Source of the DNA: a phage
Length of the DNA: 4,451 nt
Strand: one strand, 5' to 3'
Sequence record: PZ049720.1
In this document: piece by piece, positions 1-4,451 of the stretch
Numbering within the stretch: position 1 is the stretch's first letter
Layout of the letters: every line of letters begins with the position of its first letter
Made by a program: the position numbers and the translations under genes
The notes under the pieces: model-generated
Database searches by the model: none
Told to the model about the DNA's origin: nothing
Seen by the model: the letters and a program-made list of their open reading frames with translations, nothing else

Positions 1-28
1 CATGTGAGCCGGCTTCATCACCTGGCAG

Positions 29-431: not shown

Positions 432-743
432 TCACGCCTGGAAGCGATGGATGTTCGACAGCTGTTTGTTCGGCTTCGGATTCCTGCGATAGACCAGCGC
501 CATTTTGCCGATGGTCTGCACCAGTTCGCATTTTCCGATTGCGCACAGCTCTTCCATCAGGGCGCGGCGATCTTCGCGCTCGGTAAGGCGGAACTGGATC
601 TTGATCAGTTCGTGATCGTTCAGGGCTCGCTCCAGTTCGGCTTGAACGCCTTCGGTCAGCCCGTTTTCGGCAACGATCAGCACCGGTTTCAGATGATGGC
701 CGATGGACTTGTACTGTTTCTTCTGCTCGTTGGTGAGCGGCAT
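432..743 (-). CDS. yhbY: YhbY/CRS1-domain RNA-binding protein (ribosome assembly factor), 103 aa
   Basis: Translation MPLTNEQKKQYKSIGHHLKPVLIVAENGLTEGVQAELERALNDHELIKIQF...VQTIGKMALVYRR matches the recalled E. coli YhbY pattern (KQKQHLKGLAHPLKPVVLLGSNGLTEGVLAEIEQALEHHELIKVKI...VQVIGKTLVLYR). Length and the orientation opposite to ftsH fit the conserved gammaproteobacterial arrangement. Confidence 0.85.
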   Translation of the reverse strand: MPLTNEQKKQYKSIGHHLKPVLIVAENGLTEGVQAELERALNDHELIKIQFRLTEREDRRALMEELCAIGKCELVQTIGKMALVYRRNPKPNKQLSNIHRFQA

Positions 744-1357
744 ATTTCGACCCTTGCGTCAGAACCCTTGAAAAACGGCGGCTAGTGTAACCGAGAGGTG
801 CAAGGCCGCACAGGTGAGCGATCGGTTTGGCAGGCTTTAGAGCCAGTCTGTCGTGGTGAACCTTGTGATCGCAAACGCAGCCCCAATATGAGAGCTGTGG
901 GGACTGCCAGCCAGTCGTGACGCAGTGCTTTCTGCGAAACGGCGCGCGATTCGGTCTCCGGATACTGCATTCGGCTCGGTTTTTTTGATCAAGATATTTC
1001 AGGATGCGCGCTCTACGCGTACTTGAAAGCGTTGCGGCAGGCGTTCGAGAGCATGTAGACAAGCAAAGCCGCGGTGGCCTCGCGACCGCTCCAGTGCGCA
1101 ATATCTGCTTGTCCATGGCTTTACGGGTGTGCCGAACGAACAGACCCGTTTGTGCGAAAAGGCCGGTTTGGCGGTCTATTCATGCGGGCGTCGGCCAATG
1201 GACGGCCCCGTACGGCAAGGACTAGGCTGTTTCATGGGGTTACAGACCGACTGCCTGTTCCAGTGCGTTGTGTAGTAAGTTAGGCCGAGCAACCAACCGG
1301 CCGTCATGCGGGCCCGCGGACACGGGTTTGCTCCAGAGGGTAGTTAATTTGAACGAC
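744..1357. promoter_or_regulatory. 614-bp non-coding divergent spacer between yhbY and ftsH; presumed to hold both promoters and the ftsH 5' leader
   Basis: Stop codons occur in all three + frames in the stretches translated by hand. The only ORFs are short with odd composition. An AT-rich island with a T7 run lies at 976-1000. Weak sigma32-like elements (CTTGTGA 862-868, CCCCAATAT 881-889) are present. No confident -35/-10 pair could be assigned. Confidence 0.4.
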
Positions 1358-3271
1358 ATGGCAAAAAACCTGATCCTGTGGCTGATCATCGCCGCCGTCC
1401 TGGTCACGGTGATGAACAACTTCTCCAGCCCGAGCGAGCCGCAGACGCTGAACTACTCGGACTTCCTTGAGCAGGTCAAGGAGGGGCGCGTGGAGCGCGT
1501 GACCGTCGATGGTTTTGTCATCATCGGCAAGCGTAGCGACGGCGACACCTTCAAGACCATTCGCCCTGCGATCCAGGACAACGGCCTGATCGGCGATCTG
1601 CTCGACAACAATGTGCTGATCGAGGGCAAGCAGCCTGAGCAGCAGAGCATCTGGACACAGCTGCTGGTGGCCAGCTTCCCGATCCTGGTGATCATCGCCG
1701 TGTTCATGTTCTTCATGCGGCAGATGCAGGGCGGTGCTGGCGGCAAGGGCGGGCCTATGAGCTTCGGCAAGAGCAAGGCTCGCCTGCTCTCCGAGGATCA
1801 GGTCAAGACCACCTTCGCTGACGTCGCCGGTTGCGACGAGGCCAAGGAAGAAGTGCATGAGCTGGTGGAGTTTCTCCGCGACCCGGGTAAGTTCCAGCGT
1901 CTCGGCGGCCGTATTCCGCGTGGCGTGCTGATGGTCGGTCCGCCCGGTACTGGTAAGACGCTGCTGGCCAAGGCGATTGCCGGTGAGGCGAAGGTGCCGT
2001 TCTTCACCATCTCGGGTTCGGATTTCGTCGAGATGTTCGTCGGTGTCGGCGCCAGCCGGGTCCGCGACATGTTCGAACAGGCCAAGAAGCACGCGCCTTG
2101 CATCATCTTCATCGACGAGATCGACGCGGTCGGTCGTCATCGTGGTGCCGGCCTCGGCGGCGGGCACGACGAGCGCGAGCAGACCCTCAACCAGTTGCTG
2201 GTGGAGATGGATGGCTTCGAGATGAACGATGGCATCATCGTCATCGCGGCTACCAACCGTCCCGACGTGCTCGATCCGGCGCTACTGCGTCCGGGCCGCT
2301 TCGACCGGCAGGTGGTCGTAGGTTTGCCGGACATCCGCGGTCGCGAGCAGATTCTCAAGGTGCACATGCGCAAGGTGCCGGTCAGCGAGAACGTCGAGCC
2401 GGCGGTCATCGCCCGCGGTACGCCGGGTTTCTCCGGTGCGGACCTGGCCAACCTGGTCAACGAGGCGTCCTTGTTCGCTGCGCGGGCCAACAAGCGCATC
2501 GTCGAAATGCGCGAGTTCGAACTTGCCAAGGACAAGATCATGATGGGCGCCGAGCGCAAGTCCATGGTCATGTCCGAGAAAGAGAAACTCAATACCGCGT
2601 ATCACGAGGCTGGGCACGCCATCGTCGGGCGCGTGGTGCCGGAGCATGACCCGGTCTACAAGGTTTCCATCATTCCTCGCGGGCGGGCGCTGGGTGTCAC
2701 CATGTTCCTGCCGGAAGAGGATCGCTACAGCCTGTCGAAGCGCGCACTGATCAGTCAGATCTGCTCGCTGTTTGGTGGTCGAATCGCCGAGGAAATGACC
2801 TTGGGCTTCGAAGGCGTCACTACTGGCGCTTCCAACGACATCATGCGCGCCACTCAGTTGGCGCGGAACATGGTGACCAAGTGGGGCTTGTCGGAGAAGC
2901 TTGGCCCGCTGATGTATGCCGAAGAGGAGGGTGAGGTCTTCCTCGGTCGCAGCGCTGGCAGTCAGCACGCCAACGTTTCCGGCGAGACCGCCAAGCTGAT
3001 CGATGAAGAGGTGCGCAGCATCATCGATCACTGCTATGGCACCGCCAAGCAGATACTCACCGAGAACCGCGACAAGCTGGACATGATGGCCGAAGCACTC
3101 ATGAAGTACGAAACCATCGATGCACCGCAGATCGACGACATCATGGCGGGCCGTCCACCGCGCGAACCGCGTGACTGGGAAGGTGGCGGTACCGGCACGT
3201 CCGGGACGCCGGCCGTGCCGGATGACAATCGTCCGCAGACGCCGATTGGTGGTCCCGCCGGGGAGCATTGA
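1358..3271 (+). CDS. ftsH: ATP-dependent zinc metalloprotease FtsH (AAA+ membrane protease), 637 aa
   Basis: N-terminus [15 protein letters not shown] is the conserved FtsH start. Walker A GPPGTGKT, Walker [10 protein letters not shown], second region of homology [20 protein letters not shown], and zinc-binding HEAGHA are all present, with two N-terminal TM segments. The ORF track start at 1268 (TTG) is an upstream in-frame extension; ATG 1358 was chosen by homology. TTG at 1349 with AGAGGG 8 nt upstream is a possible alternative start. Confidence 0.96.
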
Positions 3272-3319: not shown

Positions 3320-3349
3320 CCAGAAGGGGCGCATAGGCGCCCCTTCTGG
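3320..3349 (+). terminator. Strong GC-rich hairpin (perfect 13-bp stem CCAGAAGGGGCGC / GCGCCCCTTCTGG, loop ATAG) 49 nt after the ftsH stop; likely intrinsic terminator, attenuator or mRNA-stabilising stem-loop
   Basis: Perfect inverted repeat 3320-3332 / 3337-3349 seen directly. The downstream sequence TGTAAATTGTC is only moderately U-rich. On the minus strand the stem is followed by TTTT, so it may act in both directions. Confidence 0.5.
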
Positions 3350-3439: not shown

Positions 3440-4291
3440 ATGAACAACTCGTCTTCACCTGCTCGACTGGTCTGCGGCAGTCGAGTCCTCGATCTTTCCC
3501 GTCCCCATGTCATGGGGATTCTCAATGTCACCCCCGATTCCTTTTCCGATGGTGGTCGCTTCGCCGAGCGCGATGCCGGCATTGCGGCACGCCCGGGCGA
3601 TGGTTGCAGCAGGGGCTACGCTGATCGATGTGGGGGGGAGTCGACCCGTCCGGGCGCGCGTTCAGTTTCGCCGACCGAGGAGCTGGAGCGGGTTGCCCCC
3701 ATTGTCGAGGCCATTGCTGGCGAGCTGGATGTCGTGATCTCGGTCGACACCTCGACGCCTGCGGTGATCCGCGAGTGCGCGCGGCTGGGCGCCGGTCTGA
3801 TCAACGACGTGCGCTCGCTACGACGGGATGGTGCGCTGGACGCAGCGGCCGACACCGGTTTGCCGGTCTGTCTCATGCACATGCGCGGCGAGCCTGGGGA
3901 TATGCAGGACGATCCGCGCTATGACGATATCACTGCGGAAGTTGCGTCGTTCCTAGGTGAGCGAATGGCGGCGTGCGCAGCGGCAGGCATTCTGGCAGAG
4001 CGCATCGTGCTCGACCCGGGGTTCGGCTTTGCCAAGACGCTGAATCACAACCTCGTGCTGTTCAAGCATATGGAAAAGCTTCACCGACTGGGGCGTCCGC
4101 TGCTGGTGGGCGTGTCGCGCAAGAGCATGATCGGTGGCGTGCTGGGGCGTCCGGTGGGTGAGCGGCTGTATGGCAGCCTTGCGCTGGCGGCCCTGGCCGT
4201 CAGCAAGGGGGCGCAGATCGTGCGGGTGCACGATGTGGCCGAGACGGTTGACGTAATTCGAATGATCGCTGCAGTGCAGGCGGCAGAGTAG
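3440..4291 (+). CDS. folP: Dihydropteroate synthase (FolP), 283-aa uninterrupted ORF, with an internal compensating frameshift pair that puts about 18-20 codons out of frame relative to homologs
   Basis: N-terminal [23 protein letters not shown], then GGESTRPGA...EELERV...ISVDTS...GLPVCLMHM...[10 protein letters not shown]...[12 protein letters not shown]...IVRVHDV all match DHPS motifs. AAGG lies 8 nt upstream of the ATG. Codons 3578-3637 read [18 protein letters not shown] in frame, whereas the +1 frame (3579-3638) reads the expected [20 protein letters not shown]. Confidence 0.85.
3578..3638 (+). other. Out-of-frame segment inside folP, bounded by an apparent +1 insertion (GCCGGC, 3575-3580) and a -1 deletion in a 7-G run (3632-3638)
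   Basis: Hand translation of both frames. Frame 0 gives the DHPS-like [20 protein letters not shown]. The ORF frame gives non-conserved [18 protein letters not shown]. Flanks on both sides are conserved in the ORF frame. Confidence 0.7.
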
Positions 4292-4301
4292 GGAAGACAC
4301 C

Positions 4302-4451
4302 ATGACTAGAAAGTATTTCGGCACCGACGGCATTCGCGGACATGTTGGGCAAGCGCCTATTACCCCGGATTTCATGCTCAAGCTGGGCTGGGCGGCAGGC
4401 ATGGCCTTCCGCAAGCAGGGCAAGTGCCGCATCCTGATCGGCAAGGACACC
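4302..4451 (+). CDS. glmM: Phosphoglucosamine mutase GlmM, 5' partial (first 50 codons; continues beyond the window)
   Basis: Translation [50 protein letters not shown] matches the conserved GlmM N-terminus ([10 protein letters not shown]). Shine-Dalgarno GGAAG at 4292-4296 lies 5 nt before the ATG. Position downstream of folP matches the conserved ftsH-folP-glmM order. Confidence 0.92.

Follow-up and report, generated by a model that had tools for sequence, protein, structure and literature searches.

Dihydropteroate synthase (DHPS), the product of folP, has an (α/β)8 TIM barrel fold in which the catalytic loops 1 and 2 have a role in pyrophosphate and pABA binding (PMC10328974). Pairs of compensatory frameshift mutations (pCFMs), in which a +1 and a −1 indel lie close by, the frame is restored and the intervening codons are recoded, have been documented in evolution (PMC8935012, PMC8127213). 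Fixed pairs were reported from weakly constrained genes, in segments of poor conservation, and in a survey of compensatory frameshifts 6 out of 624 candidates passed stringent filtering (PMC8935012). Homopolymer or run-length assembly errors (454, Ion Torrent, nanopore, gel compressions, mixed-strain consensus) are single-base changes as well, private to a record and with intact flanks, and their repair results in a known protein. Flow-based and nanopore reads, like gel compressions, are classically prone to errors in the length of G runs.

The window, i.e., the whole stretch of 4,451 bases that was analyzed, contains a folP gene with two indels that can be compared to both types of change. 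As in pCFMs, a +1 and a −1 indel, neither of them a multiple of three, are close to each other, the frame is restored and the codons in between are recoded. Known pCFMs are shared among lineages and located in poorly conserved segments, whereas the pair in the window was found in one record, in no further independent sequence, and lies in the conserved core of an essential enzyme. As in run-length errors, each change adds or removes one base of a run, is private to one record and has intact flanks, and repair alone restores a known protein; unlike the usual errors of this kind, the two changes cancel and no stop codon betrays them. From the sequence comparisons described below, we infer that the folP frameshift pair is very probably an artefact of one sequence record and not biology.

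The gene order in the window is the one usually found in gammaproteobacteria. The 3′ part of a gene for a DUF4149-like membrane protein (+ strand, up to 400) is followed by yhbY (432..743, − strand), which encodes an RNA-binding protein of 103 aa, identical in many Stutzerimonas genomes; by exact look-up, the protein of span 435-743 (−) was found to be on record. A spacer of 614 bp (744..1357) separates yhbY from ftsH (1358..3271, +) and contains a remnant of rlmE, its decayed 3′ quarter (978..1130, +). The FtsH protein of 637 aa was found identically in 842 blocks of the assembly collection. Further downstream, folP (3440..4291, +) and the 5′ part of the phosphoglucosamine mutase gene glmM (4303..4451, +), cut by the end of the window, complete the ftsH-folP-glmM context that is a feature of FolP; folP is located between these two genes in all relatives too. 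The closest species-level genomes were those of Stutzerimonas (Pseudomonas stutzeri group). At the DNA identity of about 85% found for these species-representative genomes, indels can be placed, but an error cannot be separated from a lineage trait.

The folP ORF was described in the initial annotation as uninterrupted over 283 aa, and it is indeed open from 3440 to 4291. When searched against Pfam PF00809 (Pterin_bind), the ORF as written scored 230 bits (cut-off 25.5), covering profile positions 1-244. Following repair of both sites, the score was 277.9 bits, an increase of 48. The chains of E. coli DHPS (PDB 1AJ0, 5U0V) and other solved DHPS structures were alignable end to end (E ~1e-88) except for the stretch around residues 46-64, for which the E. 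coli counterpart is DAVKHANLMINAGATIIDVGG. This stretch corresponds to folP codons 47-64 (3578..3631, +), 18 codons that are read out of frame in the ORF and take the place of helix α1 and strand β2, while the +1 frame over the same bases is canonical. Translations and comparison with 80 species-level relatives agreed exactly with the earlier description of a segment without resemblance to DHPS in the ORF and of the conserved segment in the +1 frame. Across the 18 recoded positions, the residue of the window was shared by 0-3 of the 80 relatives per position, whereas the +1 frame gave the consensus; the mismatch is therefore more than chance. Residues G58 and D63 were invariant (80/80) and both are R in the window ORF, bearing out the reported loss of the conserved Asp from this segment. 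The family feature preceding loop 2 (A-x-x-H-A...M...AGA-x-[LI]-[IV]-D-[VI]-GG, spanning α1 and β2) is absent from the ORF as written, and present in the +1 frame and after repair. Directly downstream of the recoded stretch, the loop 2 motif ESTRPG is in frame again. Judged by its sequence, the gene is an ordinary FolP/Pterin_bind member in its usual context, and the α1-β2 feature fails only in the frame as written.

Both switch points were located by DNA alignment to 12 species and listing of the gaps relative to the nearest species. One extra base was found in GCCGGC (site 1, 3575..3580, +) and one base was missing from a 7-G run (site 2, 3632..3638, +), which places both switch points of the initial annotation correctly to the base. 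In the same alignment and gap listing, folP and ftsH contained no further frame-changing indels. The +1 indel at site 1 and the −1 indel at site 2 are 57 bases apart, and together they restore the frame. Both are changes of one base in the length of a G run, from G to GG at 3578-3579 and from G8 to G7 at 3632-3638. Either indel alone would truncate FolP, to 98 aa for the 7-G run alone and to 161 aa for the extra G alone. The GC content by codon position of the bases between the sites was 0.79/0.58/0.68 in the +1 frame and 0.68/0.79/0.58 in the ORF frame. In the rest of folP it was 0.72/0.48/0.73, a pattern matched by the 57 inter-site bases in the +1 frame and not in the ORF frame.

Conspecific contigs were fetched via the exact FtsH protein of the window, resulting in ten distinct contigs (L091-L100). 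Six of these were also available with wider flanks (L085-L090), which are not extra sequences. All ten were 98-99.8% identical to the window over the whole length, with the same 614-bp yhbY-ftsH spacer and an identical gene order (yhbY, rlmE remnant, ftsH, folP, glmM), and all ten encode an intact FolP. At site 1, each of the ten reads GCCGCA or GCGGCA, i.e., GC(C/G)GCA. At site 2, eight G are present in nine contigs and GGGTGGGG in the tenth. Over the 57 bases between the sites, the window does not differ from the conspecific sequence. The initial annotation had named GCCGC together with an eight-G run as the pattern that would speak against a real mutation and for a simple assembly error; checked in assemblies, this pattern was found, with eight G in nine of the ten contigs and GGGTGGGG in the other. 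Its expectation of homology holds also for this lineage, as the segment GIAARPGDG was in-frame in no close ortholog.

An alignment of the window with the ten contigs had 4,454 columns, of which 172 (3.9%) were variable. Bases 1-7 aside, the only private states of the window in these 11 sequences were the two indels, and the same result was obtained with seven sequences. The number of private substitutions in the window was zero over about 4,450 columns of the 11-sequence alignment. The other contigs had 1-19 private states each, with at most one indel per contig. Both indel sites coincide with columns that carry a population SNP, namely C/G at site 1 and G/T within the G run at site 2. At site 1 the population has GC-C-GCA or GC-G-GCA, and the GC-CG-GCA of the window looks like a tandem of the two alleles; at site 2, where GGGGGGGG and GGGTGGGG occur, the window is one column shorter.

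Removal of one G and addition of one G, as in the repaired reading proposed initially, proved correct, the resulting ORF being identical at 283/283 residues to the catalogued Stutzerimonas stutzeri FolP WP_256068666.1. This protein was found on 30 contigs and on 15 more as a 259-aa call starting from Met25, giving 45 in total. The scrambled protein was absent in both its 283-aa and its 259-aa form among about 15 billion catalogued proteins. Likewise, neither the extra-G site nor the 7-G site had an exact match in 241 million metagenome records, a collection in which the organism is present, as four of the conspecific contigs come from it. In a homolog search with the ORF as written, the best identity was 84% and the recoded stretch occurred in none of the matches; the database used for this search holds one representative per 90% cluster, and conspecific proteins are hence hidden there. 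In several NCBI metagenome-assembled genomes (L085/L091, L088/L094, L098, L099), the call for the same intact folP starts at Met25 (259 aa) instead of Met1 (283 aa), so that one gene appears in databases under two protein lengths. The 90%-identity cluster containing the FolP of the window has a GlmM as its representative and mixes FolP and GlmM among its members, presumably since some assembly contains a product of folP and glmM, fused or read-through, that links them. A literature search on folP in stutzeri yielded nothing relevant.

If the pair is an artefact, folP is most probably ordinary and intact in the source organism, a strain of S. stutzeri. During base-calling, assembly, polishing of the consensus or editing, a G would have been doubled at site 1 (GCCGCA to GCCGGCA) and the 8-G run of site 2 read as 7 G. 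With opposite signs and a distance of 57 bases, the two changes leave the ORF open and gene callers silent, and the 18 intervening codons would merely be translated in the wrong frame. Given the SNPs at both sites, a possible route is a consensus over mixed strains. The coincidence of both indel sites with SNP columns fits such a mixed-strain consensus artefact and is suggestive of it; by our own estimate, the joint coincidence would be expected in a few per cent of cases. Site 1 is not a long homopolymer, which argues against an artefact. The same holds for the coincidence of two errors of opposite sign less than 60 bases apart in a random 4.4-kb window, which is about 1%. This coincidence is estimated to be unremarkable only since oddities were selected and if indel errors occur at about 1 per 2 kb. 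At that error rate, an assembly would be expected, again by our own estimate, to contain dozens of cancelling pairs genome-wide.

Runs of eight G are truly prone to replication slippage as well, and the G8 run of folP is a plausible hotspot. It is conceivable, though unlikely, that the pair is a real, very recent and strain-private compensating frameshift in the only chromosomal folP of an S. stutzeri strain. In that case, a first indel, either slippage from G8 to G7 or the additional G, would truncate FolP, and a second would restore the frame 57 bases off. The second indel would perhaps be selected, as it restores translation to the folP stop or relieves polarity on the essential glmM, located 12 bases downstream; selection for frame restoration would then explain the open ORF. 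In favour of a real pair, bases 1-7 of the window differ from the conspecific contigs, from which it follows that its source is no simple copy of a known assembly. Against a real pair, the indels are private to one record when compared with ten conspecific contigs and are absent from the protein and metagenome collections, and no private substitution accompanies them. Moreover, the recoded stretch, with the invariant G58 and D63, is among the most strongly conserved regions of this essential enzyme. Structure models were compared using AlphaFold. For the window protein, pLDDT was below 50 over residues 32-73, α1 and β2 were lost and the mean pLDDT was 68. For a close intact relative with an equally shallow alignment, a helix (44-56) and a strand (61-65) were modelled, with a mean pLDDT of 82-94 over residues 41-60 and of 81 overall. 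The recoded stretch was thus not modelled as α1/β2, unlike in the control relative. With an alignment of 34 close relatives, the models are weak evidence, and they are blind to the difference between error and mutation. A DHPS without α1 and β2 would probably be inactive or badly impaired, and the strain would need another DHPS (a sul gene) or external folate end-products, unless folate synthesis were covered by a crippled but viable DHPS. A real pair would represent a rare bacterial compensated frameshift inside the conserved core of an enzyme that is essential and a drug target, and it would imply a second DHPS; no result obtained here speaks for such a case. Of the two alternatives offered initially, the ten contigs and WP_256068666.1 thus favour two homopolymer-type errors that cancel, and the real double indel is left without support.

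Other readings of the open ORF have less in their favour. A real and functional remodelled DHPS, for instance an adaptive variant with altered sensitivity to sulfonamides in which the 18-residue segment is tolerated, is very improbable; the points on its side are the open ORF, the return of ESTRPG in frame and the clustering of folP resistance mutations in loops 1 and 2 (PMC10328974). The known resistance changes in folP are point substitutions or short in-frame loop insertions and not the swap of a barrel strand plus helix (PMC10328974). In addition, invariant residues are replaced in the window protein, fold elements are lost in its model, and a second sequence with the segment was found in neither the protein nor the metagenome collections. 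A lineage-specific sequence, with orthologs sharing the in-frame GIAARPGDG segment, deserves next to no credence and is refuted by the canonical segment in 10/10 conspecific contigs and 80/80 species-level relatives; the best database matches were only 84% identical to the ORF as written, and none has the stretch in common with it. The presence of a homopolymer of 7-8 G inside a coding region could suggest phase variation, with the run acting as a contingency tract that turns folP on or off. This is hardly credible for a housekeeping gene, the more so as tract length is constant in the conspecific contigs (8 G in nine, interrupted by T in one, 7 or 9 G in none) and other species are without a G run at site 2, having GGCGGC, GGAGGT and similar sequences. 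Programmed frameshifting was rejected, the conspecific folP being simply in frame.

With regard to data quality, cancelling +1/−1 errors keep an ORF open and thus pass gene callers and pseudogene filters. The pair in the window would in this way put a wrong FolP of 283 aa into protein databases. The sequence can be repaired exactly by dropping one G at 3578/3579 and lengthening the run at 3632-3638 by one G.

At the start of the window, positions 1..7 read CATGTGA and the conspecific contigs have GCGCGCG, homology starting from base 8. The mismatch stems either from an artefact at a contig end or cloning junction, or from a real rearrangement at the 5′ end of the gene for the DUF4149-like protein. 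Judging from the junction, a short record may begin where the window begins.

Outside folP, and as context only, no intact copy of rlmE (ftsJ), the gene for the methyltransferase of U2552 in 23S rRNA, lies between yhbY and ftsH in the window. About 457 bp of the gene are replaced by about 141 bp (837..977), and these are followed by the remnant of about 150 bp, in which the frame changes near 1011 and 1065 and residues have diverged. This state of decay is common to all ten conspecific contigs. At the position between yhbY and ftsH, rlmE was intact in 62 out of 100 fetched loci; at that locus, several further lineages of Stutzerimonas and Aquipseudomonas also lack it or have it in decayed form, among the species concerned being P. 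songnenensis, S. kunmingensis and Aquipseudomonas alcaligenes.

The spacer between ftsH and folP contains a perfect hairpin (3320..3349), formed by a 13-bp inverted repeat (CCAGAAGGGGCGC / GCGCCCCTTCTGG) with a 4-nt loop and not followed by a T run. Based on reverse-strand BLAST matches, a similar inverted repeat is located at the corresponding ftsH-folP position in relatives.
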